64,000 bases of DNA. Source: an uncultured Clostridia bacterium. GTDB lineage: Bacteria; Bacillota; Clostridia; TANB77; CAG-508. The DNA is taken from NCBI GenBank assembly GCA_910589185.1, contig CAJUSU010000001.1:1191-65190 (forward strand), read 5' to 3'. Shown here piece by piece: positions 5,683 to 37,014 of this stretch. The position numbers and the translations under genes were made by a program. Below the pieces are notes generated by a model. That model saw nothing but the letters and a program-made list of their open reading frames with translations, searched no databases and was not told the DNA's origin. Each line of letters starts with the position of its first letter. Position 1 is the first letter of the stretch.

Positions 5683-5793
5683 ATGAAACTAAGCAAAAAA
5701 CTAAGGAAAAGACGAAACAAAAAACTATTAACACTCCTCGTTGGAGCAGTAGCAACCACAGGAATTGTAGCTGCAACACAGCTAACAGGCTTT
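5683..5793 (+). other. Signal peptide or N-terminal membrane anchor of the giant protein
   Basis: MKLSKKLRKRRNKKLLTLLVGAVATTGIVAATQLTGF has a strongly basic n-region followed by a hydrophobic h-region. I could not call a clear cleavage site by eye. Confidence 0.7.
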
Positions 5794-17700: not shown

Positions 17701-20700
17701 GTAGCCAGTGGAAAAAATCATGTTTTAGCTTTAAAGAATGACGGAACTGTATGGGCATGGGGATATAACAACTATGGACAATTAGGAGATAATACACAAA
17801 TCACAAGATATACACCAGTACAAGTATTAGCAGAAGATGCAAGTAGTCCACTTCAAGACATTATCTATATTGCAGCAGGAGAAGACTACTCAGTAGCTAT
17901 TAACAAAAAAGGTGAAGTATGGACCTGGGGAAAGAATGATTACGGACAACTAGGCGACGGAACCAAAACTGCTAAATACACACCAACAAGAGTAAAAGCT
18001 AACCTTTCAGGCATTATCAAAGTAGCTTGTGGTATTAGACACACAGTTGCTTTAAAAGCAGACGGAAGTATTTACACTTGGGGCGATAATGGAAATGGCC
18101 AATTAAGTGATAATACGAATACACAAAGACTAATTCCAGTCAAAGTATTAGAAACAGCAGATACTTATGTATCAGATGCCATCAGTATTTCAGCAACCAA
18201 TTATAGTACACATATTTTAAAAGCAGATGGAACTGTAAAATCAGTAGGACTTGGAACTTCAGGACAACTAGGAGATGGTGGAAAAGTAAATACAAAACTA
18301 CCAGTAACAGTAGTTGGAGTTGGCGGAACAGATACTTTAGCACAGGTAAAAAGTATCAAATCAGGAGCAAACACAACTTATGCTTTACGAAAAGATGGAA
18401 CCGTAGTTTCTTGGGGACTTGGAACCAATGGAGAATTAGGAAATGAAGCTTTAGCTAACAGCCTATTCCCAGTAGAAGTGGTTAACCATACACAAGACGG
18501 CATTTTAAGCAATATCCTATATATCGGAGCAGGAGCAAATCATGGAATGGCAGTAGAAGACACAGGATATGTAGAAGTTTGGGGCTTAAATAGCCAAAAA
18601 CAAGTGGGAGACATCACAATTGCAAAATCAACTTACCCACTCTATATTGGTTCAAAAATAGTAGCAACACCTAGTGAAGTGACAATGGAAGTTGGAGATA
18701 CTCAAAACTTAAAAGTAGCAATGCAATCTTTCAACTTATTTAGAGCAACAGAAGATGAAACCATGACAAGAGTAACTTACCAAAGCTTAAATGAAGCAGT
18801 AGCAACTGTTTCAAAAAATGGAACAATTACAGCAACAGGAATGGGTATTACCACAATTGTTGTAAATGACCACTTATCTGCTAAAGTAACCACAGTACAA
18901 GTTAGCGTATTAGAAAATAACGCAATTGCTACACCAAAAGTAGTATCAGGAATAAATCATACTATTGCCTTAAAAGCTGACGGAACTGTATGGACATGGG
19001 GATATAACCATCATGGACAATTAGGAGATGGAACGACCAAGAGTAGTTATATACCACAAAAAATCGGACTAACAGATGTCATTGATATTGCAGCAGGAGA
19101 CCACTTCTCAATGGCATTAAAGAAAGACGGAAGTGTATGGGTATGGGGCTTTAATGATAGAGGACAATTAGCACAAGGAAACACAGCAGAAAGCCTAACA
19201 CCAGTACCAGTGAAAGGTGTAAATGGAGATCCATTACCAAGAGTAAAGAAAATTGCAGCTTGTAGATATTCTTGGGTAGCTATATTAGAAACAGGAGAAG
19301 TTGTAGGCTGTGGTGCTAATACACAAGCAATTTTAGGTGACGGAACTAGCACAGACAGATACTTCCCAGTATATATGCTAAATCACAATGGTTCAGCACA
19401 CGTCAAAGAAGTAAAAGACATCACCATTGGTCAATGTGAAACCTTCTTAATTAAAGAAGATGGAAGTTTATGGTCAGTAGGACATAACTGTAATGGTGGT
19501 ATGGGTGTAGGTAATAAAACAGCATACACCAGAATTAGACAAGTACAAGATACCACAGGTACAGGAGTATTAAATAATATTATTCAAGTATCAGGTGGTG
19601 GTTGGTACACACTAGCCTTAGACGCAAACGGAAATGTTTGGGCTATGGGAAGAAATGCAGAGTACGAATTAGGAATTAACAATACCACTTCACAAACTAG
19701 ACCTCAAAAGGTATTAGGAGTAGGAGGCACAGGATATCTAGAAAACATTGTTAGAATTGAAGCAGGTTATTACTCATCTTATGCTGTTGACAAAGCAGGA
19801 GATGTATATGCTTGGGGAGATAACAGACACGGACAATTAGGTATCAATAATGCAACTACTCAAAAAGTACCAAAACAAGTATTAGGTGGAACAGCAGGTG
19901 GAAACTTAGATGATGTAATGCTTGCATCTTCTAATGGATACCATGCAACTTTTGTCAAATATGACGGAACTGTATGGACCACAGGATATAATGGAAACGG
20001 AGAACTGGGAAATGACTCAACTGCTAAAAGATTAACCGTAGAATGTATCAGTAATCCACAATTAGAAGTAGACCAAAAATACTTATTATTTAGTCAAAAT
20101 CTTGGAGAAACCAAAAAGGTAAATGTCAAAGCCAATAGTGGATTTAACCTATTAACAGACACAGCAACAGCAGGTGCAAATACCTTTAAGAGTTTAAATA
20201 CCAGTATCGCAACAGTAGACCAAGACGGAAATATTACTTCAGCAGGAAGCGGAACTACTTATATTAGAATTACCAATGACACCTTAGGATTAACTACCAC
20301 TGTAAAAGTAGTAGTACCATATAGAGATGGTATAGTGGTTCCAAAAGTAGACGGTGGAGCAAACCACTATGTAGCCTTAAAAGCAGACGGAACCGTATGG
20401 ACTTGGGGTTACAATGGCTATGGACAATTAGGTATTGGAAATACAGCAAACCAATTAGAACCAGTCAAAACTAATATGACAGATGTCATTGATGTAGCAG
20501 CAGGTGGAAACTTCACAGCAGTATTGAAAAAGGACGGAACTGTTTGGGTAACAGGACAAAATAACTATGGACAATTAGGACAAAACAACACAACAAACAC
20601 CACCAACTTTATTCAAGTAAAATCAGAAAATGGTTTGGCAAATTTAACGGATATTATTGGTATCACAGCAGGTGAGTACCACATGGCAGCATTGAAATCA

Positions 20701-23700
20701 GATGGAACAGTAGTTGCTTGGGGATATAACGCTTATGGACAACTTGGAAATAACACCAAAACAACCGCTAAATTACCAACAAGAGTAAGACGTGTTAGTA
20801 GTATTATGGAAATTGCAGCTAATGGAAATTACTTAATTATGCTAGTATCAGACGGAACTGTTTGGGCAGCAGGAAACAATAATATTGGACAATTAGGACA
20901 AAATAACACAACAGTTAGCACCATTCCACTTAAAATAAAGAACCCAGCAGGTACAGGAGAAATGACAGGTATTGCCAAAGTAGAAGCAGGTAACGGTCAT
21001 ACCATATTATTAGGTGAAAATGGCAGAGTATATTCAACAGGACAAAATAATTATGGACAATTAGCACAAGGAAATACCACAAATAAAACCTTAATTGTAG
21101 AAGCAAAAGAAGTCGGTGGAGCAGTCATAACTAATGCAGCAGACATTGTTGCAAGAAATTGCACAACTATGATTTTAAGAAAAGACGGAACTGTATATAC
21201 CGCAGGATATAACGCTTATGGTGCAGCAGCTAATGGAACAACAGTTGCAAACAAATACTTTACCAAAATGCTTGGAGAATATGGTGAAGGAGACTTCACA
21301 AATGTTTTATTAGGTGCACAAACCAATAATACAGCCTTAGTAGCTAACAACATAGGAAGTGTATATACCGCAGGATATAACGCTTATGGTCAATTAGGAG
21401 ATAAAACCACCAAGCAATCTAATTACCTAGTAGGTATTAGCCATACATCACTAGAAGTAAAAGAACCAATTATGACAATGCAACAAATTGGTAGTCAAAA
21501 ACAAATAGAATGTAAGTTGAATTTAGGCTTTAACATTTTATATAACAACCTACAAACTGAAAACTATACCTACAAAGTATTAAACAAAGATATTGCTAGC
21601 GTTGACGCAAATGGAGTAGTAACTGCTCTAAAATATGGAAGCACCAGTATTGAAATAACAAATCAAGAAACAGGCAATAAAGCCACTGTTATCTTAAATG
21701 TTGTAAGAGAAGGAGATATTGCTAACCCTAAAGTAGCAAGTGGTGTAGACTACAATGTAGCCTTAAAATCAGACGGAACTGTATGGACATGGGGATATAA
21801 CAATTATGGAGAGTTAGGCTTAGGAGATACAGCAAGAAGATTAGAGCCAACAAAGGTCAATATCACAGGAGTAATTGATATTGCAGTAGGAAACCACCAC
21901 ACCTTATTACTAAAACAAGATGGAACTGTTTGGGCAATGGGATTAAACAATTATGGTCAAATTGGAAACAATACTACCACAAATGTTAGTCAGCCAGTCC
22001 AAGTACAAGGCTTAGAAAATATCATCAGAATTGAAGCAGGAGCAAACCATTCTATTGCATTAAAATCAGACGGAACAGTTTATGGTTGGGGCTATAATGC
22101 TTATGGTCAATTAGGTGATAATACTACAACAAGAAGAAATGTACCAGTGGAAGTAAGAAGAATTAGTGGAATTAAAGATATTGCAGCAGGTAACCACTCT
22201 AGTATGGCATTAGACACAGACGGAAATGTTTGGGTATGGGGCTTAAATACTTCAGGACAATTAGGACTTGGAACCAAAACCAATGCCATTTTACCAACCA
22301 AATTAACTTCTGTTAGTAAAATTGCACAAGTAGAGATGGGAACCAATTATGGTATGGTAGTTACAGAAAATGGAGAAGTATATAGCTTTGGTGTGAATGA
22401 TGTAGGACAATTAGGTATTGGTAATAAAACTAACCAAATTACACCAAAACAAGTATTACAAGCTGATAAAACACCATTAACCAATGTAGAATATGTAGCA
22501 GCAGGAACCAAACACGTTCTAGCCAAAACTAAAAATGGTTTAGCTTATGGTTGGGGACTAGATACAAATTCTCAATTAGGTGATGACCAAACCACAAATA
22601 AACTAAATGCTGTGCCAATTACTTATGCAGGTGGAGCAGATGAAATCACAGAAGTTCTAGAAGTAGCAGCAGGAAATGCACATTCTATCCTTGTTAGAGA
22701 AGACGGAACTGTATGGACAGTAGGAAAGAACAACTATGGACAAATTGGTGATGAAACTACCATCAACAAAAAATCTTGGGTATGCATTAGTGAAATTAGA
22801 ATTAAAGTCAAAGAAACTTCTATTACAATTAATGCAGTAGGAGGAAAATACAACTTAAGTCCAGTATTAGGAGTAGGCTTTAACTTATTATATGATGACG
22901 GAGCAGACGGAGATTTTGCTTTTGCAAGTAAAGACACCACCACTGCTGATGTATCAGAAAAAGGTGTTATCACAGGTGTTAAACGTGGTAAAACCAAAAT
23001 AGGAATTACAGAAACCAATACAGAAAAAACCATTTATGTAGATGTTTATGTATTAGACGAAAAAGATGTTGCCTTCCCACAAATTGTAACTGGTGAAAGT
23101 ACAACAGTAGCCCTAAAAGCAGACGGAACTGTTTGGACTTGGGGACAAAACGACAAAGGACAATTAGGTCTAGGAGACAACAAAAACAGAATTGCACCTA
23201 CAAAAGTAGACATCGATAATGTAATAAAAATTGCAACCAGTGGTAACCACACACTAGCCTTAAAGAAAGACGGAACTGTTTGGGCTTGGGGACAAGGTAC
23301 AGCAGGACAACTAGGTACAGGCTTATTACAAAACTCAAATGTACCAGTACAAGTCAGAGATGAAACAGGTGTCAATGTTCTACAAAACATCAAAGAAATT
23401 GCTACCGCAAACCAATTATCAATGGTAGTAACCAGTGAAGGCAAGGTATATGCATGGGGACTTGGAACTTCAGGACAAATCGGAAATGGAGCAAAAACCA
23501 ACCAAACTATGCCAACCAAAACCCTAGGACTATCTAATATCACCAAAATTGCAGGTGGAAACCTATCAGCTTATGCTATCACAGACGAAGGAGAAGCTTA
23601 CGCTTGGGGATATAACAATAGAGGTCAATTAGGAGATGGAACCAATACTTTAAGAACACAACCAGTTAAAATACCAAACTTAACAGGAATCATAGAAATT

Positions 23701-26700
23701 TCAGCAACAAGCACAGAGCAAGTTATTGCCTTAAAAGATGACGGAACTGTTTGGGGTTGGGGATATAGTACCCTAGGAGCATTAACAGATGTTGGAGGCT
23801 CTACTCCAAAACAAATTGCCGGAAAAACCAATAGAATGAAAGACATTGCTAGTATTTCAGCAGGATATTACGCAGGACTAGCCATTACAGATGAAGGAAA
23901 AGTCTTAGGTTGGGGAACAAATGGCTTTGGCGGACTTGGTAATGGAACAACCACCAATACCGCTACACCTACTCATGTAATGGAAAGTGCTACAAAAGAA
24001 CTAGATCAAATCTTTATTATCGCAATGGGCAAAAATTACAGTGTTTATGCAAAAGAAGATGGAAGTGTATGGGCAACTGGTACTAACGAATTTGGACAAC
24101 TAGGAAATACCTCAACAGTCACCATTCATACACCAGAAAACATCAGTCAAGACTACATCAGTACTAACAAATTAGAATTGGTATTCCATGAATTGAATGT
24201 AGAACAACCAATTAACGCTACTTATAACTTTGGATTTAATTTATATAACAACTCAGCAGACGTAAAATTCACTTATACATCAGAAGATGACACAGTAGCA
24301 GCAGTTGGCGAAAATGGTATGGTAACTTCAAGAAATATTGGCAAAACCTATATCAATATTACCGCAGGAGAGTTAACAAGAAGGGTAGAGGTAAATGTAC
24401 TAGCACCACAAGAAATTGCAGCAATGGACGCACAGGGTGGTTTAAGACATACCTTAGCACTCAAAACAAATGGAACTCTATGGGCATTTGGAGATAATAG
24501 TTATGGTCAATTAGGTTTAGGAAGTGTAGAAAGTACAACTTACCATAAGCCACAAGAAGTAAAATTACCAGAAAATACAAAATTCACCAAAATTGCAGTA
24601 GGTAGCAACCACAACTTAGCATTAGATACAAATGGAAATGTATATGGCTTTGGACTAAACGCAAACGGACAACTAGGTAACAACACAAATACAAACAGCG
24701 GAGAATTAGTCAAAGTAGAAGGTTTAACCAACATTGTTAAAATAGCAGCCTACAAAAATATGAGTATGGCATTAAACCAAGACGGAGAACTATTCGTATG
24801 GGGAGAAGGTTATAGTAAACAACCTGAAAAGGTAGATTTCCACGCAAAAGTCATTGATATGACAGGAAGAATACTCCTATCAGAACAAGGCACAGTATGG
24901 AATATGAAAAACCTAAATGAGAAAACACCAACCTTAACCAATATTGTAGAAATCGCGTCAGGAGATAGCCACAACTTAGCTTTAAAAGCAGACGGAACAG
25001 TATATGGATTTGGAGCAAATAACTACGGACAACTAGGTACAGGAAATACTACTAATGCAGACAAACCAGTAGTGATTTCAAACTTACCAAAAGTAGAATC
25101 AGTCAAAGCTAACCTATACACCTCTTATGTACTAACTAGTGCAGGAGAAGTATATAGCTTTGGAAGAAATACAAAATCAAGCTTAGGACAAAACACAAGT
25201 GCTACTTATAACATGGCTCCTACGAAGATAGATAGCACAAAAGTACAAAGAATTTCAGCAGGTCAAAACTTCGGTATCTATGTCAATGATGAAGGATTTG
25301 TATACTCTTGGGGTAATAATGATTATGGACAACTAGCACAAGACGAAAAAGAAATAATTACTCCTAGCGTAATTGGAACTGTCAAAGTACAAACAGACAA
25401 AGACTACATCACTATCGAAGAAGGAGAAACCAAAGGCATTAGCGCTACTTTAAATAATACCTTCAATTTAAGAAAAGATGTTATCGCAAGTGACGGCTTT
25501 ACCTTTGAAAGTATGAATACAGGAATTGCTACAACACAAGACATTCGAGTAACAGGTGTCAAAGAAGGAATTACTCCTATCGTAATTTCACACCCAGCAT
25601 CAGAACAAAAATCAGCAATTTATGTAGAAGTCGTAAGACCAAACGCAAAATCAGTTATCGACCTAAAAGCAGGTACAGACTTTAACTTAGCACTAAAAGC
25701 AGACGGAAGCTTATGGAGTTGGGGTTCAGGAACTTATGGAAAACTAGGTGTGGGAAGCCTAGACAACCATAATGAACCACAAGTAATTCAAACAGCTTCA
25801 AGAACAAGACAAATTGCAACCGGTTTAGAACACATCGTAGTTTTATCAGAAGAAGGAAAAGCCTATACTGCAGGTAAGAATGGTAACGGACAATGTGGAA
25901 ATGGAACCAGTGTAAATAGTAAAGACTTAACCAATGTGTTAAATGAAAATGGAAAACCATTAGAAAATCTTGTTATGGTAGCAGCACATGGTAATACAAC
26001 CTACTTATTAGACAATGAAGGAATTGTATATGCTTGTGGAGCAGGCTATAACAAAGTAGCTACCAAAATAGCAAACTTACCAAAAATGGCACAAATTAGT
26101 GGTAACTATGGTATCACAATGGATAAGAAAGTATTTGACTTAAGCACAGGAAGCCAAGTTGAAAAATTAGAAAACATTATCAAAATCGCACAAGGCGATA
26201 ACCACACCTTATTCTTAAGCCAAGCAAAAACAGTATATAGCTTAGGAACAAACACCAATGGACAAGGTGGAATTGGTACAAAAACCAATATCATGACACC
26301 AACACAAGTAAAAAACAATGTCGGAACTGGAATTTTAACTGGTGTAGTAGACATTGCAGCAGGAAAGAATTTCAGTATGGCAGTTCTAGACAATGGAACA
26401 GTTTATACTTGGGGTTCAAATGAAAATAACAAACTAGGAACAGACCAAGTAAATGACCAAATCTTACCTAGAAGAAATACCAATATCCAAAATGCAATGA
26501 AAGTAGCAGCAGGAACTAACCATGCAGCCTTCGTAGCAAATGACGGTAGGGTATATGCTTGGGGTAATGGAGAAAATGGTACACTTGGAAATGGTGTAGA
26601 CGCAAACTCTACCCAGCCAGTATTAGTAGGTTCAGAAGAAGTAGTGGTGGACAACCACCATGTAACACTACATATTGATGAAGAAATCACATTAAATGCA

Positions 26701-29700
26701 AATGTCAAATCTTTTAACCTAATTCAAGATTTAGAAAAAGGAAGTTTAACCTATAAGTTAAATGATAATAGTATAGCAACCATTGATAATAATGGAAAAA
26801 TTACAGGAGTAAAAGAGGGAGTTACCTCTGTTACAGTAACACAAGATGGAACTGACCACCAAGCAATTGTACAAGTAACCGTAATTAGAAAAAATGCAAA
26901 TGTTAATCCATTAGTTAAAACTACAAATTCAAGTAATGTTATCCTAAAAGCAGACGGAACTGTTTGGACCTATGGTGCAAACGATAACGGAGAATTAGGA
27001 AATGGAAACAACACAGCTTCTGATAACTTAAATCAAGTAGTATTTAACCCAGAAGTTAAAATCAAAGAAATTGCAGTTGGAGAAAATCATGTGTTAGCAT
27101 TAGACGAAAACGGTGAAGTATGGGCGTGGGGCTCAAATAGCTATTATCAATTAGGAACATCAGAAATAGCAAGTAGTAATCAACCTATCAAACTAGAACT
27201 AGGAAGTAAAGCCATCAAAATAGCAGCAGGTCATAACAGTTCTTATGCAATTACAGCAGACAATAGCTTAATGGCTTGGGGACTAAACACGGACGGACAA
27301 CTAGGACTAGGAAATAATGATAATAGACTATTACCAACTAAAGTAAGAACTTTGAAAAATGTATTAGATGTTACAGCTGGTAAATCACATACGGTCATCG
27401 TAACCACAAATGGAACAGTTTATACAACTGGAAATAACAGTTTTGGAAGTTTAACTGGTGATGACTATAAGAGAAATACTTTCAAGGTAGCTACAAACTT
27501 GTCAAACATTGCATACATTTCAGCAGGGGAATATCACAATATGGCACTAAGTACCAAAAATGAAGTATATGTATGGGGCTATAACGTATATGGTCAATTA
27601 GGTACAGGAAATACAAGCAATATAAACCAACCTGTTAAAGTAGATATTGCCAATGCAAAACAAGTTTCAAGCGGAAAATCACATTCTAGTATCTTAACCA
27701 AAGAAGGTAAGCTATATAGTACAGGACTAAACAGTTTAGGACAACTAGGAACCACTAGCAAAGACAACCAAGTAACCTTTACATTAGTAGACACCATTGA
27801 TGAAGTATATGGAATTGACACAGGAAACACTTATGATATGGCAATCAAAAATGATGGTACTGTATGGGCTTGGGGAGACTATTACCACGGTACAAATGCT
27901 ATTAGAACAAAATCAAATAGTAGAGTACCTACACAAATTGGTATCCAAAATTTCTACCTTGTAGAGAATGACATTAGTGTTAATAAAGACACCAGTAAGC
28001 AGTTACAAGTTAACCCACAATTTGAGTTCAATGTATTTGAAAATAATACATTAGAAAACAATTTCAGCTATATTTCCTTAAATGAAGATATCGCAGTAGT
28101 GGACGAAAACGGAAATGTAACAGGTAAAAAAGTAGGAACCACTTGGGTAAAAGTAATAGAAAACACTAGCAAAGCAGAACAAATTGCTATTATCCGTGTG
28201 ACTGAACCGGGAAATAAAGTAGCACCAAAAGTAGCAGGTGGAATTAACTATGCAGTTGTATTAAAAGCAGATGGTAGTGTATGGAGTTTTGGATATAACT
28301 CAAATGGTCAGCTTGGAGATTCTAGCTTCGTAGCTTCTAAAGTACCAAAAGAAATCAATATCCTAAAATCTTATACAGATATCACAGCAGGAGATAACTT
28401 TACCTTAATTCTAAAGAATGACGGAACAGTATGGAGTGTAGGAGATAACCAATATGGTCAATTAGGACTAGGGGATAGAACCTCACGTCAAACACCAACT
28501 GTCATTCCAAACCTTGAAAATGTTGTTAAAATTGCAGCAGGAAGCAAACATAGTATAGCTCTAACCAAATATGGAGAAGTCTATACATGGGGTGCTAACA
28601 CCAATGGTAAATTAGGAATTGGAAACCTTGATACCAAAGACTTACCAGTCAAAGTAGAAATTCCAGGTGCTAACATTATTGATGTAGCAGCAGGAGAAGG
28701 ATATATTGCCTTAGTAGACAGTAATGGAACAATCTATGTTAGCGGAAAATTAGGAAGTATTGAAAGCAAAGTTCCGGTAGCCGTTAGTGGAATTGCAAAT
28801 AGCGCTAAAGCCGCAGCAGGTAAAGACTTAATCGTACTTACCAAAGAAGGAAATGTAGTTCAAGTTGGGGAACAAACTACTACCCTTTATAGTAGTAAAG
28901 ATGCAGTCGATATCGCAGCAAAAGGAACTAACTATTTAATCTTAAATAACAGCGGAAAACTATTTGACGGAGGCATTAGTAGCAATGGAGAAATCGGAGA
29001 GGTTCTAACTATTGGTAGTGGTATGAATAATACCTACTATATCGCTACAAGCGGTCTAGTTTATAGTAAAGGACAAAACCAATATGGTTCACTAGGAAAT
29101 GATACAACTGATAATTCAGAAGAATATACCCTAGTAGGTAAACGTAGCTTTACCGTATCACCAAACAATATCTTAATGAGTACCAACGACATCAAAGACT
29201 TAACCTTAACTTCAGAAAGATATAATGTGTTAAAACAAGATAATAGAACCATTAACGATTTTGATTGGGTATCAAATGATACAAATATTGTTACAGTCGA
29301 GGCACCTGCTCAAATTAAAGCAATTGCCGAAGGTGAAACAACTATCACAGTGACACAAAAAGACACAGGAGCAGAAGTAGAAGTAATGGTAGTTGTAGAA
29401 CCATTAGAGGCACAGAGGTTAGAAAAATTAGCAGTTAATGAAGTAGATGCACAAGTATCAGGAGCCAAAAAATATGAAGTAACCATTGCAACAGATAAAG
29501 ACAACGGAAGTCTAGTTATTACAACAAAAGACAAAACAGACAAAATTAGTATTGATGGTGGAACAACGTGGTTTGAAAATGGAAGCCTAACACAAGTGGT
29601 TAGCTTACCAAACTCTGTTACACAAATTCCAATTAAAGTACAAACTTCAAATGGAACCGTATTTGATTACACCTTAGATGTTATCAAACAATCTACTATA

Positions 29701-32700
29701 ACGACTTTAGAAAGCCTAACAGTTAATGGCACAGAAGCAACAGCAACAGGTGGAACTAACTACTCTATTGTAGTAGAAGACGCAGACTTAGCAACAGTCA
29801 AAGCAGTTACTACACATCAGCAAGCTAAAGTAGGAATTGATAGCAATAGCGTAAAAGTTCATGAAGCAACTGAAGATTTATCTTTAGTAGATACTTTAAT
29901 TAGAACAGTACCAATTCAAGTCATTGCAGAAAGCGGAAAAGAAGTCAACTATGTATTAACCATTTACAAAAAATCAGCAGTAACAGAATTAGAAAGTGTT
30001 ACAGTTGACGGAAAAGAAGCTACTAAAAATAACCACTTAAATTATAGTATGGTTGTAGAAAAAGACTCTACCCAAGTAGATGTAAAAGCAATAGCACTAT
30101 ATGATTTAGCTAATGTTAACATCAATAACTTAGGAGCAGAGGTCAAAGAAACAACAAGAACCATTACTTTAACAGGAGATGTAACAATTGTTAAAATCAA
30201 AGTTGGAATGGGAGAAGAAGAAAAAGAATATACTTTGACCATTACCAAGAAGGTAGACGGTTCTGACTTAGCTGACTTATTTGTTAATGGTGAAAAAGCA
30301 ACTAAGGTAAGTGACAATCAATATGAGGCAGTTGTAGCAAGTAACAGTCAAACCGCAGAAGTATTGGCAATTGCAGCAGTAAATACAAGTAATGTTCAGA
30401 TTGGAAGCAACGCTCAAGAAGTAGGAAGTTCAAAAGTAGTAGTTGCTACTCCTGACAATAGCAATATTTACACTATTACCATTACAGACGCAGAAGATGT
30501 TAGCAAAACTGCAACTTATACCCTAACCATTAAAAAGCCATCAACAGATAATAGTTTAAAATATATTCGTATTTCTAATAATGAAATATCAGTAGATGCA
30601 ACAAGAGATGCGGGAACCGATACTTATAGAGTAAAAATCAATGAGAAGTACGAGAACTTAACTATTACAGCAGTCGCAAATTATGAATTAGCAGAAGTTG
30701 CCATTGAAACTAACAGTTATCAAGTAAAACAAGACACTTTAGCATATACCTTTAACACAGAAAGCGCAACCTTGCAAATTAAGGTAAAAGCACAAGACGG
30801 AGACGAAAAAACTTATACTTTAATTTTAGAAAAACAGTCAAGCGATGTTACCTTAGAATATGTTAAAGTAAATGGAGCAAATGCTGTTAAATCAGCAGAA
30901 AAAGCAGATACTTATGAAATTACCTTGACACAAAAAGTAGATGACGTAACAGTGGAAGCAAAAACTACTGATGAAGCAGCAGAAGTAGCATTAAACAATA
31001 TTGTTTATGAACTACAAACTATTACGAAACAAATTGCTATGGACGCGAAAGAAATTACTGTTAAAATCAATGTCAAAGCAGAAGATGGTACCACCAAGAC
31101 TTATGACTTAATTATTCATAGTGTACCAGATAACACTAAATTAACAGAAATCACAGTCAATGGTGTAACTGCTGTCTTACAACCATATTCTAATAAATAT
31201 GTGGTCAGAGTACCAAGCAATTTAACAACTTATGCAGTAACTGCAAAAGCAGAAGATAGCTTGGCAATGGTTAAAATAGATAACTTTGATGCTATCTTAG
31301 CACAAAGTACACAAAATATAGCCAAGACAGAGCCAGCACCTACTAAAGTAGCAATAGAAGTTACGGCTCAAGATAAAGAAAGTAAAGAACAATATGAATT
31401 AGAAATCTACCCAAGGTCACAAGATACTATCTTAGCATACTTAAAAGTAGATGAAAGCTTTGTAGAACCAGCAGATGATGGACAATACTATGTCAAAGTA
31501 GTTAACTCTACAACAAGTGTTAAGATTGAGGCAAAGGCTGGGGACGAAAATGCAACAACAGGAATTAACAAAGCAGGAACCACTAATATTGTGACAGAAG
31601 TAGGAACCTTAACAGGAGATGTTACTGTATTTGATATTATAGTTACCGCAGAAGACGGAAATACAAAGACCTACAAGCTAAATGTAGAAAAACTATCTAA
31701 TGATACCAGTATCGTAGGAATTTATGTGGACGGAAATGAGGTAATCGCAGTAGATGGAAAATATGTAGCAAAAATCGGAAATAATACTACCTGCTTAGTC
31801 AAAGCAATTGCTACAAATCCAGATGCAAAAGTATCTGTTGACGGAAACACAGATGCAGTAAAAGAAAATCAAAATACAGTGGACGTTAACGAAGAAGAAA
31901 AAACAATAGAAATTACAGTGACCGCACCAGACGGTACAAAGAAAATCTATCCACTAACACTACAAAGAAATTCAACAGATAATACATTGTTATCTATTTC
32001 AGGAAAAGATGTACCAGAAGATGCAGTAGTTCAAACTTCTGAAACCACTTACCAAATGATCGTATCAAATGAATTAACGAAGTTAGAATTAACCGCAGTT
32101 ACTTCAAGTAAAGTAGCAGAAGTAAAAATTGGGGATAACAGTTATGAAGTAAATACACAAACAAAAGAAGTTACTTTACCAAATGATACCAATACAGTGA
32201 TTATCACAGTAAAATCAGAAAGTGGAGAAGAAAAAGAGTATACATTAACCATTATCAAGAAATATGTTCTAACTTTAGATAGTATTACAGTAGACGGAGT
32301 AGCCGCAGAAAAACAAGAGGACGGAACCTATATTGCATGGGTAGACCCTACAAGCACACAAAGTAATGTGGTGGTAACACCAACCTCAAGTAAAGTACAA
32401 GTAAAAGTAGGAGAAACCATTAACAATATTGGAACTACAAACTATACAGTAGCTACCACAGAAGATGAAACAATTAGCAAAATTATTGTGAAATCACCTA
32501 TTGAAGAAGACCAAGTAGAATATACGTTAAAGATTATGAAAAAATCTCAAGATACTACACTAGAATATGTCAAAGTAGACAGTCAAGTAGGAACAGAAGA
32601 AGATGATGGAAGCTATACTGTCAAAGTGCCAGTACAAGATAATAGTTATACAATGGAAGTAAAAACAACAAGTCCTTATGCTCAGGTTAAAATTGAAGAT

Positions 32701-35700
32701 AACGCATTTGCATTGGGAACAGATAGTTATACTTTAAATTTAACAGGAGTAAATAGTAAGACAGTAACAGTTACTGTAAAGGCACAAGACGGAACAGAAA
32801 AAACTTATACCGTAAATGTACAAAAAGTATCTAGTGATAATACGCTTCAAACCGTTAAAGTCAATAATGTAGAAATCACAGAAGTAGACGGAATTTATAG
32901 AGCGTTTATCAAAGAAGATGTGACAAATGCTAACTTGTATGTAGAAACCACCCATAGTGGAGCAACTATCAAGTTAGGAGAAGATGACGAAAAAGTACAT
33001 ACTGTTACAAAAGATATCACAATGGACCAAACAGAAAAGACAATTGCAATGAAGGTAACTGCTGAAGACGGAAGTGTAAAACAATATACTGTTATTATTG
33101 CAAAAGAATCTTCTGATATTGAAATCCAAAGTGTAAAAGTTGACAATAAAGGTGCTATTGTCGTAGATGAAAGTACTTACTACATTACAGCAACACCGGG
33201 AGCGACAGAGGCAGAAGTAGAAGTTATCGCAGCAAACCAATATGCTGGTGTTCAAATCAATGGAAGCGCAAAACAGACAGGTAAAAACACAGTAAAAGTA
33301 ACCTTACCAGCAAATCAAAAAGTGGTAGCTGTACCAATTGTCATCACAGCACAAAACGGAAAAGATAGTAAAACTTATACTTTAAACATTGAGCAAGTAT
33401 CGAATAATACGAATATCATCAAAGTAACTGTCAATGGAAAAGATGTTACAACTTATGATGAAGAAACAAAAACTTATACACATATTGTAGACTATTCAGT
33501 AGACGAAGCTACCGTTACTGTGGAAACAGAAAATGCGGAAGCAACTGTCAGAATAGAAGCGGGGGCATTTAGTAAACATACTGCTACGGAAAATGTATCA
33601 ACTGCCGGAGAAATCAACGATATTACCATTACAGTAGTTGCAGAAGATGGAACAACAGAAAATAGAACATTAGTCATCAAGAAATTATCACAAGATGCAT
33701 CTATCTTAAAATTATTTGTCAATGATGTAGATATCGCTGCAAATGATGACGGAAGCTATACAGCAGAAGTAGTAGAAAGTGAAACAAAGGCAACTGTAAG
33801 AATTAAAACCACGAATAAAGATGCTCAAATCTTATTAGATGGAACCGCATTAGAAAATAAGGGAGAAGGAACAAAAGAATATACCACAACAGGTACAAGA
33901 CAGATAACTGTTCCAATTAAAATCATAGCAGAAGATGGCATTACAACAAAAGAAACTACTTTGACGATTAACATTGTGTCAGACAACAAGAATTTAGAAT
34001 ATGTCAAAGTAAATGGAGTAGTTGTAACAGAGTATGACGAAGACACTTCTACATATCAAGCATTTATACCAGCAACAGCTGCCACTGCTAGTGTTGAAGT
34101 AAAAGCTATCAGCCCTTATGCTACATTAAATATTGATGGAAATACTGCTACACAAGTAATTACTTACACAGCTACAACAGATGCAGATATTACTTATGTT
34201 TATGTAGATGTCATTGCAGAAAATGATAGTGTAAAAACCTATACAATTGCTATGCAAAAGGAATCAACAGATAATACCTTAAAAGACTTATACAAAGATG
34301 GTACACAAGTAGACCCAGAAGAAGATGAAAACTATATTATCAATGTACCAGAAGATACCTTAGAACTTACCTTAAAAGCAATTGCTAATAATGAATATGC
34401 CACAGTAGCAATTGGTAATGAAACAGCAGAAGTAAAAGAAACCACTAAGACAGTTACCTTAGCAACTGGCAAAACAACTACTGTTAATATTACTGTAACT
34501 GCACAAGATAAATCACAAAGAGTTTATACAGTAACCATTAACAAAGTATCTGCTAATAATAATATAGAATATGTCAAAGTAAATTCAAATGTTATTACCA
34601 ATTATGATGCAGATACCAAAACTTATGAAGCATTTATACCAGCAGGAGCAACAAGCGCTAGCTTGGAAGTTCAGTCTGAAAATGCTTATGCACAAGTCGA
34701 AGTATTAGACGCCATAGGAACACATAATGTTAATACTACCGTAACCATAGATGAGGAGGAAACTCTCGTATCTGCTATTGTTACAAGTGAAACCGGAGTG
34801 GAAGAAACTTACTACATCAGGCTAATCCGAATTTCAACAGATAATAGCATCAAACAAATCTATGTCAATGGTACCTTGATAGAACAAGACGAGGACGGTA
34901 ACTACATTGCAGAAGTTGCAGAAAATAGCAAAGATGCTCTTGTCAAAGTAGTAGCAAACAATAAATACGCAAGCGTTCAAATAGCCAATGGGGAGGCTAA
35001 AACGGAAGCTAGCGAGGAAACTGTAACACTATCTACTGACAAAATCACCAATGTTGCAATTACTGTTACTTCACAAAGTGGAACTGTCGCAAACGAAACT
35101 TTAATTATCAAGAAAGTATCAGATGATACGGGTATTAACACAGTGCTAGTCAATAGCATTGAATGTAAAAACTATGATGAAACTACTAAGACTTACACAG
35201 CCTATATTGGAGCAGATGTAGATCAGTCTGAAGTAGCTGTTATGGCAAATAGCCAAGGGGCAACAGTTACAATTGAAGATGTAACAGGAACAGGAAATGC
35301 TAATAAAACAGTTGCAACTACTGCACAAACTACGAAGTTAGCAGTAACCATTACTTCTGAAACAGGCAAGACAGCAAAATACACTATTCTAATTGTAAAA
35401 GAATCTGCAGATGCAACAGTAGAGTTAATCAAAGTAAATGACAAAGAAGTACAAGCACCTTATGATGTAACCATTAAGAAATTAGACACAAAAGCAAAAA
35501 TCTATGTAAAAGCAACCAATAGTAATGCCATTGTAAAAATAGGAGATGAAGCGGCAGAAAAAGGAAGCAGCGAGGTAACACTTACTATCCCACTAGAACA
35601 AGAGGTTATCGTAGTACCAGTTGTTGTAACTGCTCAAAACGGTGTTGCAAAAGAAACTTATAACATTACTTTAAGAAGAATTAGCAATAATACAGGAATT

Positions 35701-37014
35701 AAACAAATACTAGTCAATGGGGAAGACGTAGATTTAACAACATTTGAACATATTGTGAAAAATGTTAATGAATCAAGTATTGTGATTATTCCAGAAGATG
35801 AAAATGCAACCGTTAAGTTAGATAGTAACACTTCTAGCACAAATGATAATACTTGGAAAGTAGATACTTCTACAACAACTATTAGGGGAATTACAGTGAC
35901 AGCACCAGACGGAACAGAAAAAGAGTATGCATTAACATTGATGAAAAAGGTAACGATTTCAGGAACTATTACAGATGAAAACATCGTGGATAAACATATT
36001 GCCAAAGTCTTTGTTTACCAAACTGATGACACAAGAAAGGAAAGTACCAAAACGGATTTGAATGGTATCAAACTAGACGAAACAAGCGGAACAGTTCAAA
36101 CGAATGTAAGGGAAATTATCGCTGAGGTAGAAACAAAGCCAGACGGAAGTTATGAAATCGTGTTAGAACCAGGAGAATATGATGTAGTATTTACAAAACC
36201 GGGTTACTTAACACATAGAATTACACATATTGATATTTCAAAAGGAAAAGGCGCAGAATTAGACAAAGTAGCAATGCTTGCCGGTGATGTTGTTGAAACA
36301 GGCGAAATTGAATTAGACGACTTAGTAAGCATCAATGAACAATACGGTTTAACAGTAAGCTACGCAGACGGCGTAAATGACGCAAATGTAAAATATGACT
36401 TCAATGGTGATGGTATCGTAGATGCAAAAGATAGAAATATCTTAAAGAAAAACTACGGTAAGAAAGCAAAAACAGTAAAATGGGTTAATCCAGATGAAGT
36501 AGCAAAACAAGAAGCGACAAAAGCAGCAAGAAAAGCTAACAAAATAGTAAGCAGTGAGACTAGGGGAACTTCTGCTTATGAAGGACAATTCGTTTTACCA
36601 CTAAATAGCAAATACACCATTACGTCAAACTATGGGGACAGAATTGGACCTATCACTGAAACAAATGAAAAACACACAGGAATTGATATTGCAGGAGAAC
36701 ATCATGCAGAAGTACTTGCAGTTACTGATGGGGAAGTAACATGGGCAGGTGTACAAAACGGATATGGTAACTGTATTGAAGTGAAACATATTGTTAATGG
36801 GGAAACAATTTACAGCTTCTATGCACACTTATCAGAAATCAGAGTAAAAGTCGGAGATAAAGTAACACAGGGCCAAGTGATTGCTTTAGAAGGTGGAGAT
36901 CCAAGTACTGACCCTAATCCGGGGGACAGTACAGGACACCACTTACACTTCGAAATCAGAACAAAATCTGGTTATGGAAATGATGTGGATCCTACACAAT
37001 TTATCAAGTTCTAG
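5683..37014 (+). CDS. Giant (10,443 aa) secreted or surface-anchored mosaic protein. Order of parts: signal/anchor, 17 x (RCC1 propeller + Big_2), 23 x cadherin-like beta-sandwich, CarboxypepD_reg-like, dockerin-like, M23 peptidase.
   Basis: There is no stop codon for 10,443 codons. A GAGGGA RBS lies ~7 nt upstream of ATG 5683. The N-terminus is basic and followed by a hydrophobic helix. Recognisable domain motifs run along the entire length (see sub-features). Antisense ORFs are all short. Confidence 0.95.
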   Translation: MKLSKKLRKRRNKKLLTLLVGAVATTGIVAATQLTGFKTLTENLSRLGMQRENNAYQLLSDSKNTTANLPTLTNSAKENITVAAGNNFTAVLKADGTVWTWGNNNCGQLGNGEIENVATYELTQVIGVGGVGYLENIKQIAVGTSEVYALTRDGKVIAWGRNNYAQLGRGATGNSGTPEYVLTQVDITDEEGNETTQDVPLENIKQIAAGERHALAIDNNGNVWAWGLNHVGQLGLNVISTTASNANYKKAYAVKMQKEVEVTDDEGNIITQTVNLDNAKQVSAGNDFSVILTNDGKVYCTGIGTSGQIGNNAAVNVMIPTQVQDLEDVKKIDAGGSHTLALKNDGTVWAWGLNRYGQLGINTASTTSSNAAYKRIYPVQVLEAAGVPLENIADISAGLETSYAITEEGDPFGWGLNTSGQIGDSTATNRLIATPIKKAAGEYLTGIKMLSVGQNTNSHYMIDEKGDIYGSGLSTSYQMLSDRVTITNIATRLDETYLKLSHNQAYLEVGNTLDLQLGYHNGLNVLDRRLVPGNVTFRSSNEDIATVSASGTITAKAKGYVTIIAEDTTNGYTAQSIINVVAKGANALPQVASGTLATVYLKEDGTVWTSGDGTNGMLGNGYTKIINKPVQVKIGTDEYLTDIRKIEVGTEHVVALRKDGTVWAWGLGTSGQLGDGANVTHHYATQVVDETGEDYLQNIVDVAAGIDYCLALKQDGTVVGWGVGANHSLGVNSTANRAMPIKMHDSYNIIQVQGGSDTSTVLKADGTVQAVGLGTSGQLGDNTATTKAELVYAINEDLDGKLTGVVRIATGSHHTIALKEDKTAWIWGYDNYGQIGMNNTTNYKHAIPLKNVGNTDIMQNIKDIATGPTATYVLDTQGNVYAVGLNTTGQLSIGNATTVKVFTVAKDENGDPLTGVATISSSKNTTFGFAFEDGTVGITGLGTSGQHGNWTLANSNKMTRIEGAVLDAGNIYETYVNNTVKLNVNIKPAFNLNIDYEKNLQLGELTYQSLDEEVATVSTDGTVIGMKEGTTGIVITDTTNEIETTAYVTVGQRDFSDIYKIVAGSNHTVLLKQDGTVWAWGANNVGQMGNGEIFSKQATQAERVLAPEGTGYLTDVIDIAAGTSFSVALKRDGTVVAWGDNTYGQLGNTNGVAERPVYVLDMYGNKLTGVTSVSAARDHAAAVKADGTVWAWGRNDYGQIGNNSSLATCAYAVQVLDSTGADYLKDIKQVSVGQAFVTALAKDGTVWSWGLGTSGQLGNAAKATKKLPVQATGVTDVTKVVAGNAGVAVLKTDGTVWCWGMNRYGTLGYGTLSTSSSNANYLKTTQIQVKIDANTYLENVKDIGGTFETRFALTQDGTVYGWGLNTTGEIGDSTKANKAYATRPVRRYKDEVENTIVKLSSSTSGYTNYLIKEDGSILGNGRATNGQILEGGNYTERAYVDDVLVSYMEFANRIEYIKQGATKKLEVRGVENLNALGKAPELGKLTWKSMNENVVSIDQNGNITAKELGQATIIATEDKHGYRAQATIYVTANKEEAIAAPMVVQGTGFTVALKADGTVWAAGLNNNGALGDGTYTNRENLELVKIDENTNLTNVVRIAAGNSHVVAVTKDGFVYAWGLNGNGQLGIGSTVKQNYAQKVLDETGEDYLSNIIDVAAGGLHSIAIDNQGNVYTWGKGGNYQLGNYATANKTTPIRVWDTYNIVKAAGGTEHTMLLRGDGVVQGTGLNTNGWLAMGDADTRYTPLEIGSNAEAAIQREIYDIGAGANHSIFLKEDGKVYTVGLNTSGQLATGNATASNVLVVAQTKNEKDELVDLENIVSVSAGNATSFAISKTGEVYSAGLNTSGQLGLGNSTSPINTFTKVLDDEGENPLQNVIANSNGSGNTINSAFITKDGVLYTCGNNANGQLGNSTYFNYNVPVIAGDAQLKIANTQMKVQLNQEAQIDLKLEQGFNVYNNTKEVGTNLTYEATNPNVVTVSNTGKVTGKRLGTTRIKITDKDNKITEYVPVTVLHSYGFTEAKIVSGLNFAVALKEDGSVWAWGNGTSGRLGNGSTANQTQEVPVLDPNGKDQLTGVIDIAVGHDSTVALLQDGTMVAWGNNANYNLGDGTNVDRSIPVFVVDANGDKIQNITKIARGNDYTLALTKEGEVYSWGYNKYGQLGNGGTSTNATPIKVKESTGKGTLKGIIDVKCTMYASIALDADGSVWTWGKNANGELANGTKDDITLPKLSKLTDIDQLATSAYSGIAIDKNGALWSWGWNGYGQLADGTTTDRATPVSAKLNATDLVTDVIDIGTSGGTHYILTSNYQVYAVGGNAQGQIGDNTTTNRSYYTQVKAKYGEALTDKIVKISKSMSRTDSSTDTSTAYLTREDGSILGLGKNSGYQLFGKNQDILKCAKEMKTSYLEMIERINRIKIGENTKLILNMVQNFNIYSRTPVAGNITWTSSNESIATVDQKGTITGLKEGQTTITAKDDKYGYIATSIIYVTRNTASTITIPQVAQGQKFTVVLKADGTVWATGQNNYGQCGADSSVANIGELTPVKTENGTPLNNIVKVISGLDHTLALTKDRKVYVWGLNSNGQLGINSKVNQYAATYMLDEDGENPVTDVIDIAAGESFSTILKANGELYAVGNGTYSQLGIGNTTAYMTLVKMEEMQNVVQVVNGGYHTVMLRGDQTVWTVGRNRYGEMGINSIKDSSTATAQGMGYARQVINQDQNGVLRNITQVTAGGYHSVALTNTKEVYSWGYGGDGQLGTGKTAHFAYPQTVLSYKPTAEEDEGISGIIQVGSSERSIFFLTENHEVYATGENSNYQLSQDNTTDLLTPNGLYDYTGEKYIDEIANIPTGSKNINNTTVIKQDGTVWVSGLGANGQIGNGEFQTATLYTRMGIAKLQVADKIVTLAQGETHTLDVSVNQGFNVYEGETDKAGKLNYTSSNTQIAAVDENGVITAGKQGEARITIYDPVHDWTTSTLVKVTRDAEDKVKAETSVGSAGLILKTDGSVWTAGDNTYGQRGVGDKAKHLTETPVLDPNGTDKLTDVISISAGQYFNAAVKRDGRVVTWGINTYGQLGNKTNVNSEIPVYVLDIDGNPLTDIFQVYCGENHAVAVRKDGSVWTWGYNYYGQLGDNTATNRNYAIQVKDRSGLGHLQGICQVVANRNTTLALTDTGEVYAWGYNYDGQLGDGTRTTGSNPGGRRKLLPVKAVITDVARLAGGLHSTLALKNDGTIWTWGLNRYGSLGYGSSSTSEGTHYAKATPMQVKIDSVTFLTDVVEIGTSYESDYAVTKDGKVYAWGYNNAGQLGVNNTTNYSYAQLIKTRYGELLTDKIVTLSKGTTASTNYLVREDGTILGVGYTGSSQKLFTNRTANMATVQELRPDFMEVDKRVSYIKQGESTKLNIQIAKNLNAFTGHIKLGNLTWTSSNPEIATVTNDGTITAVALGETTITIKDLAHNYQAQAVVYVIQNHEQAITMPDVSQGDNFSVFLKADGSVWTTGLNSSGQLGDGTTINRSKPVRVKINSKEYLSGIVKIAAGLDHVTALSKTGEVYTWGTNDVGQLGNGGTTRSVFASKILDSNGQNPISNVVDINCGHKFTLMLLNDGTVWGVGRNAYGELGILNNTNKSLPVQMDGIANAIRVQANSSGSSIQIADGTVWTTGYNYYGTLGQNGTNTGSSAASQGRNAPNPVINNTRNAVLRNVVKLVGGLHHDIVLQEDNTVWAWGYNHVGQYGTGNTTNFAYPVRVQMGGEELTDKVVNVGTSGYNALLQTIDAQNKKHTLITGYNNNGQLGNGTTTNATSFIPLNNKDNTEEAENIDILPDDTRGHFTLGVIDTNGTVWTAGLNNYGQLGDDTVYNRKNIVQVGEIALKVEDIIFTMNPNDTKQIKAYIEDSFNVYIKENQVGTLKFESLDVAIAEVSDTGVVTAKGIGDTLIRVIDTSRNIQSAVYVKVIKKQDDMQYEPMVDGGTAHSVALKGDGTVWTWGYNKFGQLGNNTTVTTEMPTQVLGKDATGFLTDIQMVASGKNHVLALKNDGTVWAWGYNNYGQLGDNTQITRYTPVQVLAEDASSPLQDIIYIAAGEDYSVAINKKGEVWTWGKNDYGQLGDGTKTAKYTPTRVKANLSGIIKVACGIRHTVALKADGSIYTWGDNGNGQLSDNTNTQRLIPVKVLETADTYVSDAISISATNYSTHILKADGTVKSVGLGTSGQLGDGGKVNTKLPVTVVGVGGTDTLAQVKSIKSGANTTYALRKDGTVVSWGLGTNGELGNEALANSLFPVEVVNHTQDGILSNILYIGAGANHGMAVEDTGYVEVWGLNSQKQVGDITIAKSTYPLYIGSKIVATPSEVTMEVGDTQNLKVAMQSFNLFRATEDETMTRVTYQSLNEAVATVSKNGTITATGMGITTIVVNDHLSAKVTTVQVSVLENNAIATPKVVSGINHTIALKADGTVWTWGYNHHGQLGDGTTKSSYIPQKIGLTDVIDIAAGDHFSMALKKDGSVWVWGFNDRGQLAQGNTAESLTPVPVKGVNGDPLPRVKKIAACRYSWVAILETGEVVGCGANTQAILGDGTSTDRYFPVYMLNHNGSAHVKEVKDITIGQCETFLIKEDGSLWSVGHNCNGGMGVGNKTAYTRIRQVQDTTGTGVLNNIIQVSGGGWYTLALDANGNVWAMGRNAEYELGINNTTSQTRPQKVLGVGGTGYLENIVRIEAGYYSSYAVDKAGDVYAWGDNRHGQLGINNATTQKVPKQVLGGTAGGNLDDVMLASSNGYHATFVKYDGTVWTTGYNGNGELGNDSTAKRLTVECISNPQLEVDQKYLLFSQNLGETKKVNVKANSGFNLLTDTATAGANTFKSLNTSIATVDQDGNITSAGSGTTYIRITNDTLGLTTTVKVVVPYRDGIVVPKVDGGANHYVALKADGTVWTWGYNGYGQLGIGNTANQLEPVKTNMTDVIDVAAGGNFTAVLKKDGTVWVTGQNNYGQLGQNNTTNTTNFIQVKSENGLANLTDIIGITAGEYHMAALKSDGTVVAWGYNAYGQLGNNTKTTAKLPTRVRRVSSIMEIAANGNYLIMLVSDGTVWAAGNNNIGQLGQNNTTVSTIPLKIKNPAGTGEMTGIAKVEAGNGHTILLGENGRVYSTGQNNYGQLAQGNTTNKTLIVEAKEVGGAVITNAADIVARNCTTMILRKDGTVYTAGYNAYGAAANGTTVANKYFTKMLGEYGEGDFTNVLLGAQTNNTALVANNIGSVYTAGYNAYGQLGDKTTKQSNYLVGISHTSLEVKEPIMTMQQIGSQKQIECKLNLGFNILYNNLQTENYTYKVLNKDIASVDANGVVTALKYGSTSIEITNQETGNKATVILNVVREGDIANPKVASGVDYNVALKSDGTVWTWGYNNYGELGLGDTARRLEPTKVNITGVIDIAVGNHHTLLLKQDGTVWAMGLNNYGQIGNNTTTNVSQPVQVQGLENIIRIEAGANHSIALKSDGTVYGWGYNAYGQLGDNTTTRRNVPVEVRRISGIKDIAAGNHSSMALDTDGNVWVWGLNTSGQLGLGTKTNAILPTKLTSVSKIAQVEMGTNYGMVVTENGEVYSFGVNDVGQLGIGNKTNQITPKQVLQADKTPLTNVEYVAAGTKHVLAKTKNGLAYGWGLDTNSQLGDDQTTNKLNAVPITYAGGADEITEVLEVAAGNAHSILVREDGTVWTVGKNNYGQIGDETTINKKSWVCISEIRIKVKETSITINAVGGKYNLSPVLGVGFNLLYDDGADGDFAFASKDTTTADVSEKGVITGVKRGKTKIGITETNTEKTIYVDVYVLDEKDVAFPQIVTGESTTVALKADGTVWTWGQNDKGQLGLGDNKNRIAPTKVDIDNVIKIATSGNHTLALKKDGTVWAWGQGTAGQLGTGLLQNSNVPVQVRDETGVNVLQNIKEIATANQLSMVVTSEGKVYAWGLGTSGQIGNGAKTNQTMPTKTLGLSNITKIAGGNLSAYAITDEGEAYAWGYNNRGQLGDGTNTLRTQPVKIPNLTGIIEISATSTEQVIALKDDGTVWGWGYSTLGALTDVGGSTPKQIAGKTNRMKDIASISAGYYAGLAITDEGKVLGWGTNGFGGLGNGTTTNTATPTHVMESATKELDQIFIIAMGKNYSVYAKEDGSVWATGTNEFGQLGNTSTVTIHTPENISQDYISTNKLELVFHELNVEQPINATYNFGFNLYNNSADVKFTYTSEDDTVAAVGENGMVTSRNIGKTYINITAGELTRRVEVNVLAPQEIAAMDAQGGLRHTLALKTNGTLWAFGDNSYGQLGLGSVESTTYHKPQEVKLPENTKFTKIAVGSNHNLALDTNGNVYGFGLNANGQLGNNTNTNSGELVKVEGLTNIVKIAAYKNMSMALNQDGELFVWGEGYSKQPEKVDFHAKVIDMTGRILLSEQGTVWNMKNLNEKTPTLTNIVEIASGDSHNLALKADGTVYGFGANNYGQLGTGNTTNADKPVVISNLPKVESVKANLYTSYVLTSAGEVYSFGRNTKSSLGQNTSATYNMAPTKIDSTKVQRISAGQNFGIYVNDEGFVYSWGNNDYGQLAQDEKEIITPSVIGTVKVQTDKDYITIEEGETKGISATLNNTFNLRKDVIASDGFTFESMNTGIATTQDIRVTGVKEGITPIVISHPASEQKSAIYVEVVRPNAKSVIDLKAGTDFNLALKADGSLWSWGSGTYGKLGVGSLDNHNEPQVIQTASRTRQIATGLEHIVVLSEEGKAYTAGKNGNGQCGNGTSVNSKDLTNVLNENGKPLENLVMVAAHGNTTYLLDNEGIVYACGAGYNKVATKIANLPKMAQISGNYGITMDKKVFDLSTGSQVEKLENIIKIAQGDNHTLFLSQAKTVYSLGTNTNGQGGIGTKTNIMTPTQVKNNVGTGILTGVVDIAAGKNFSMAVLDNGTVYTWGSNENNKLGTDQVNDQILPRRNTNIQNAMKVAAGTNHAAFVANDGRVYAWGNGENGTLGNGVDANSTQPVLVGSEEVVVDNHHVTLHIDEEITLNANVKSFNLIQDLEKGSLTYKLNDNSIATIDNNGKITGVKEGVTSVTVTQDGTDHQAIVQVTVIRKNANVNPLVKTTNSSNVILKADGTVWTYGANDNGELGNGNNTASDNLNQVVFNPEVKIKEIAVGENHVLALDENGEVWAWGSNSYYQLGTSEIASSNQPIKLELGSKAIKIAAGHNSSYAITADNSLMAWGLNTDGQLGLGNNDNRLLPTKVRTLKNVLDVTAGKSHTVIVTTNGTVYTTGNNSFGSLTGDDYKRNTFKVATNLSNIAYISAGEYHNMALSTKNEVYVWGYNVYGQLGTGNTSNINQPVKVDIANAKQVSSGKSHSSILTKEGKLYSTGLNSLGQLGTTSKDNQVTFTLVDTIDEVYGIDTGNTYDMAIKNDGTVWAWGDYYHGTNAIRTKSNSRVPTQIGIQNFYLVENDISVNKDTSKQLQVNPQFEFNVFENNTLENNFSYISLNEDIAVVDENGNVTGKKVGTTWVKVIENTSKAEQIAIIRVTEPGNKVAPKVAGGINYAVVLKADGSVWSFGYNSNGQLGDSSFVASKVPKEINILKSYTDITAGDNFTLILKNDGTVWSVGDNQYGQLGLGDRTSRQTPTVIPNLENVVKIAAGSKHSIALTKYGEVYTWGANTNGKLGIGNLDTKDLPVKVEIPGANIIDVAAGEGYIALVDSNGTIYVSGKLGSIESKVPVAVSGIANSAKAAAGKDLIVLTKEGNVVQVGEQTTTLYSSKDAVDIAAKGTNYLILNNSGKLFDGGISSNGEIGEVLTIGSGMNNTYYIATSGLVYSKGQNQYGSLGNDTTDNSEEYTLVGKRSFTVSPNNILMSTNDIKDLTLTSERYNVLKQDNRTINDFDWVSNDTNIVTVEAPAQIKAIAEGETTITVTQKDTGAEVEVMVVVEPLEAQRLEKLAVNEVDAQVSGAKKYEVTIATDKDNGSLVITTKDKTDKISIDGGTTWFENGSLTQVVSLPNSVTQIPIKVQTSNGTVFDYTLDVIKQSTITTLESLTVNGTEATATGGTNYSIVVEDADLATVKAVTTHQQAKVGIDSNSVKVHEATEDLSLVDTLIRTVPIQVIAESGKEVNYVLTIYKKSAVTELESVTVDGKEATKNNHLNYSMVVEKDSTQVDVKAIALYDLANVNINNLGAEVKETTRTITLTGDVTIVKIKVGMGEEEKEYTLTITKKVDGSDLADLFVNGEKATKVSDNQYEAVVASNSQTAEVLAIAAVNTSNVQIGSNAQEVGSSKVVVATPDNSNIYTITITDAEDVSKTATYTLTIKKPSTDNSLKYIRISNNEISVDATRDAGTDTYRVKINEKYENLTITAVANYELAEVAIETNSYQVKQDTLAYTFNTESATLQIKVKAQDGDEKTYTLILEKQSSDVTLEYVKVNGANAVKSAEKADTYEITLTQKVDDVTVEAKTTDEAAEVALNNIVYELQTITKQIAMDAKEITVKINVKAEDGTTKTYDLIIHSVPDNTKLTEITVNGVTAVLQPYSNKYVVRVPSNLTTYAVTAKAEDSLAMVKIDNFDAILAQSTQNIAKTEPAPTKVAIEVTAQDKESKEQYELEIYPRSQDTILAYLKVDESFVEPADDGQYYVKVVNSTTSVKIEAKAGDENATTGINKAGTTNIVTEVGTLTGDVTVFDIIVTAEDGNTKTYKLNVEKLSNDTSIVGIYVDGNEVIAVDGKYVAKIGNNTTCLVKAIATNPDAKVSVDGNTDAVKENQNTVDVNEEEKTIEITVTAPDGTKKIYPLTLQRNSTDNTLLSISGKDVPEDAVVQTSETTYQMIVSNELTKLELTAVTSSKVAEVKIGDNSYEVNTQTKEVTLPNDTNTVIITVKSESGEEKEYTLTIIKKYVLTLDSITVDGVAAEKQEDGTYIAWVDPTSTQSNVVVTPTSSKVQVKVGETINNIGTTNYTVATTEDETISKIIVKSPIEEDQVEYTLKIMKKSQDTTLEYVKVDSQVGTEEDDGSYTVKVPVQDNSYTMEVKTTSPYAQVKIEDNAFALGTDSYTLNLTGVNSKTVTVTVKAQDGTEKTYTVNVQKVSSDNTLQTVKVNNVEITEVDGIYRAFIKEDVTNANLYVETTHSGATIKLGEDDEKVHTVTKDITMDQTEKTIAMKVTAEDGSVKQYTVIIAKESSDIEIQSVKVDNKGAIVVDESTYYITATPGATEAEVEVIAANQYAGVQINGSAKQTGKNTVKVTLPANQKVVAVPIVITAQNGKDSKTYTLNIEQVSNNTNIIKVTVNGKDVTTYDEETKTYTHIVDYSVDEATVTVETENAEATVRIEAGAFSKHTATENVSTAGEINDITITVVAEDGTTENRTLVIKKLSQDASILKLFVNDVDIAANDDGSYTAEVVESETKATVRIKTTNKDAQILLDGTALENKGEGTKEYTTTGTRQITVPIKIIAEDGITTKETTLTINIVSDNKNLEYVKVNGVVVTEYDEDTSTYQAFIPATAATASVEVKAISPYATLNIDGNTATQVITYTATTDADITYVYVDVIAENDSVKTYTIAMQKESTDNTLKDLYKDGTQVDPEEDENYIINVPEDTLELTLKAIANNEYATVAIGNETAEVKETTKTVTLATGKTTTVNITVTAQDKSQRVYTVTINKVSANNNIEYVKVNSNVITNYDADTKTYEAFIPAGATSASLEVQSENAYAQVEVLDAIGTHNVNTTVTIDEEETLVSAIVTSETGVEETYYIRLIRISTDNSIKQIYVNGTLIEQDEDGNYIAEVAENSKDALVKVVANNKYASVQIANGEAKTEASEETVTLSTDKITNVAITVTSQSGTVANETLIIKKVSDDTGINTVLVNSIECKNYDETTKTYTAYIGADVDQSEVAVMANSQGATVTIEDVTGTGNANKTVATTAQTTKLAVTITSETGKTAKYTILIVKESADATVELIKVNDKEVQAPYDVTIKKLDTKAKIYVKATNSNAIVKIGDEAAEKGSSEVTLTIPLEQEVIVVPVVVTAQNGVAKETYNITLRRISNNTGIKQILVNGEDVDLTTFEHIVKNVNESSIVIIPEDENATVKLDSNTSSTNDNTWKVDTSTTTIRGITVTAPDGTEKEYALTLMKKVTISGTITDENIVDKHIAKVFVYQTDDTRKESTKTDLNGIKLDETSGTVQTNVREIIAEVETKPDGSYEIVLEPGEYDVVFTKPGYLTHRITHIDISKGKGAELDKVAMLAGDVVETGEIELDDLVSINEQYGLTVSYADGVNDANVKYDFNGDGIVDAKDRNILKKNYGKKAKTVKWVNPDEVAKQEATKAARKANKIVSSETRGTSAYEGQFVLPLNSKYTITSNYGDRIGPITETNEKHTGIDIAGEHHAEVLAVTDGEVTWAGVQNGYGNCIEVKHIVNGETIYSFYAHLSEIRVKVGDKVTQGQVIALEGGDPSTDPNPGDSTGHHLHFEIRTKSGYGNDVDPTQFIKF
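5920..29400 (+). repeat. Array of 17 modules, each an RCC1-type beta-propeller (~7 blades) followed by one Big_2 Ig-like domain
   Basis: The blade motif 'DG(T/S)VW(T/A)WG.N..GQLG.G' recurs in groups. Each group is followed by a Big_2-like block ('..L.(Y/W).S.N..IATV...G.ITA...G.T.I....'). The Big_2 blocks end near nt 7425, 8835, 10275, 11710, 13135, 14597, 16050, 17500, 18915, 20320, 21705, 23055, 24405, 25640, 26890, 28205 and 29400 (about +/-15 nt). The module at ~18915-20060, parsed residue by residue, has exactly seven blades. Confidence 0.85.
29419..35949 (+). repeat. Array of 23 tandem cadherin-like beta-sandwich domains (PF12733-type pattern)
   Basis: There are 23 units of ~90-97 aa. 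The pattern is 'L..(L/I).V.G......(D/G).Y...V......V.(V/I).A......A.V.I.........V.L......I.I.V.A.DG....YT(L/V).I.K.S'. I counted them from the recurring '..K.YTLTI.K.S'-type endings. Confidence 0.8.
35955..36245 (+). other. CarboxypepD_reg-like (carboxypeptidase regulatory-like beta-sandwich) domain
   Basis: ISGTITDENIVDKHIAKVFVYQ...VETKPDGSYEIVLEPGEYDVVFTKPGYLTHRITHIDIS shows the typical 'G.V.D..G.P...A.V.......T..DG.Y.....PG.Y.....K.GY' pattern. Confidence 0.6.
36280..36466 (+). other. Dockerin-like duplicated EF-hand segment
   Basis: GDVVETGEIELDDLVSINEQYG (degenerate first repeat) and DFNGDGIVDAKDRNILKKNYG (a good match to the dockerin D.N.DG.(I/V)D..D...LK..L pattern). Confidence 0.6.
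36589..37011 (+). other. C-terminal M23 (LytM/lysostaphin-family) metallopeptidase domain, predicted active
   Basis: HTGIDI (HxxxD), YAHLS and GHHLHFEI (HxH) are all present in canonical order and spacing. The glycine-rich core 'GYGNCIEVKH' is also present. Confidence 0.85.

Follow-up and report, generated by a model that had tools for sequence, protein, structure and literature searches.

Giant surface protein gene and its C-terminal cassette

The 64,000-nucleotide window, the whole stretch of DNA analysed here, comes from an uncultured Clostridia bacterium of the mouse gut, and contains an uninterrupted ORF (5683..37014, + strand) that encodes a 10,443-aa surface protein. The locus was found again in four independent assemblies (99.4-99.98% identity), and in two of the four the ORF was called at exactly 10,443 aa. 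Since the locus recurs at such identity, we conclude that the gene is real. An adjoining gene lies only half within the window.

The final 352 residues of the giant protein consist of a docking module and an M23 peptidase (Table 1). The first-pass annotation had recognized a cassette of CarboxypepD_reg-like, dockerin-like, and M23 domains at 35955-37011; all three domain calls stand, as does the location at the 3' end of the ORF, but the start was placed one base early, because the reading frame of the cassette begins at 35956 (aa 10092).

Table 1. Features of the C-terminal cassette and product of the adjacent gene.
Feature	Residues (aa)	Nucleotides	Strand	Description
C-terminal cassette		35956-37011	+	three modules (X-module, dockerin, M23 peptidase); 3' end of ORF
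First dockerin repeat	10201-10222	36283-36348	+	GDVVETGEIELDDLVSINEQYG; weaker
Second dockerin repeat	10239-10259	36397-36459	+	DFNGDGIVDAKDRNILKKNYG
M23 motif	10331-10335	36673-36687	+	HTGID
M23 motif	10380-10383	36820-36831	+	YAHL
M23 motif	10419-10424	36937-36954	+	HHLHFE
Product of adjacent gene				signal peptide, ~200-aa head, 29 Big_3 domains, proline-rich linker, C-terminal membrane anchor

Docking module and peptidase

In Pfam searches of the cassette, CarboxypepD_reg scored 37.3 bits (cut-off 32.3), while Dockerin_1 reached 14.5 bits (E 0.042), under its cut-off of 22.9. Three other lines of evidence nevertheless uphold the dockerin call: PDB matches, predicted fold, and the scores of orthologs. 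A phmmer search of the PDB matched the X-dockerin dyad of Acetivibrio cellulolyticus ScaA (4wi0_B) across both modules with an E value of 2e-6, and CipA XDocII was matched in the identical register. An AlphaFold2 model of the region (pLDDT 90.1) resembled the X-module-dockerin chains 5g5d_B and 4u3s_B (E ~1e-7, TM 0.65-0.66), and orthologous dockerins passed the Pfam cut-off (28.5 bits for L030 and 23.8 bits for L009). The segment earlier described as dockerin-like, with a strong second and a weaker first repeat, is thus a real dockerin. Judged by sequence and predicted structure, the two domains, correctly called but labelled separately, are more precisely a single type-II-like X-module-dockerin dyad (XDoc).

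Against a cut-off of 28.7, Peptidase_M23 scored 92.1 bits (E 2.6e-26). The cassette has all five catalytic residues, and these are invariant across 45 homologues, which bears out the earlier view of a catalytically intact domain. It is apparently an active enzyme, predicted to cut the cell wall. The cassette is the hallmark of a family of giant surface proteins in gut Clostridia and always lies at their extreme C-terminus.

Topology and assembly

Two opposite topologies had been proposed for the giant protein, with no choice made between them. In the first, the protein is held by an N-terminal anchor and the peptidase is distal. The anchor is an assumption: after the sole hydrophobic segment (aa 14-34) comes a V-A-A|T site. 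Similar [VAG]-x-A|[TSD] sites occur in full-length relatives, a pattern also seen in cleavable signal peptides.

The second topology, in which the C-terminus docks to a cohesin-bearing surface protein, is favoured for three reasons. When a profile of the N-terminal head of the adjacent protein was run against the PDB, type II cohesins were its sole matches (best E 2.7e-6), and the reversed profile, used as a control, matched none of them; the adjacent gene thus seems, from its sequence, to encode a matching cohesin-like socket on a membrane-anchored Big_3 stalk. In addition, the C-terminal cassette remains constant across the family while N-terminal passenger domains vary. Finally, a terminal XDoc with no peptidase after it, the arrangement of scaffoldins, is found in some family members.

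On the best reading of this evidence, the C-terminus of the giant protein would be inserted in a cohesin-like socket carried by a membrane-anchored stalk. The XDoc would dock on the predicted cohesin-like head of the neighbouring product, and the propellers would point away. The presence of a docking module, together with the apparent socket encoded by the neighbouring gene, suggests a giant fibre of two proteins that assemble in plug-and-socket fashion. The docking module itself is cellulosome-style, with a predicted fold like that of the CipA and ScaA XDoc (TM 0.65).

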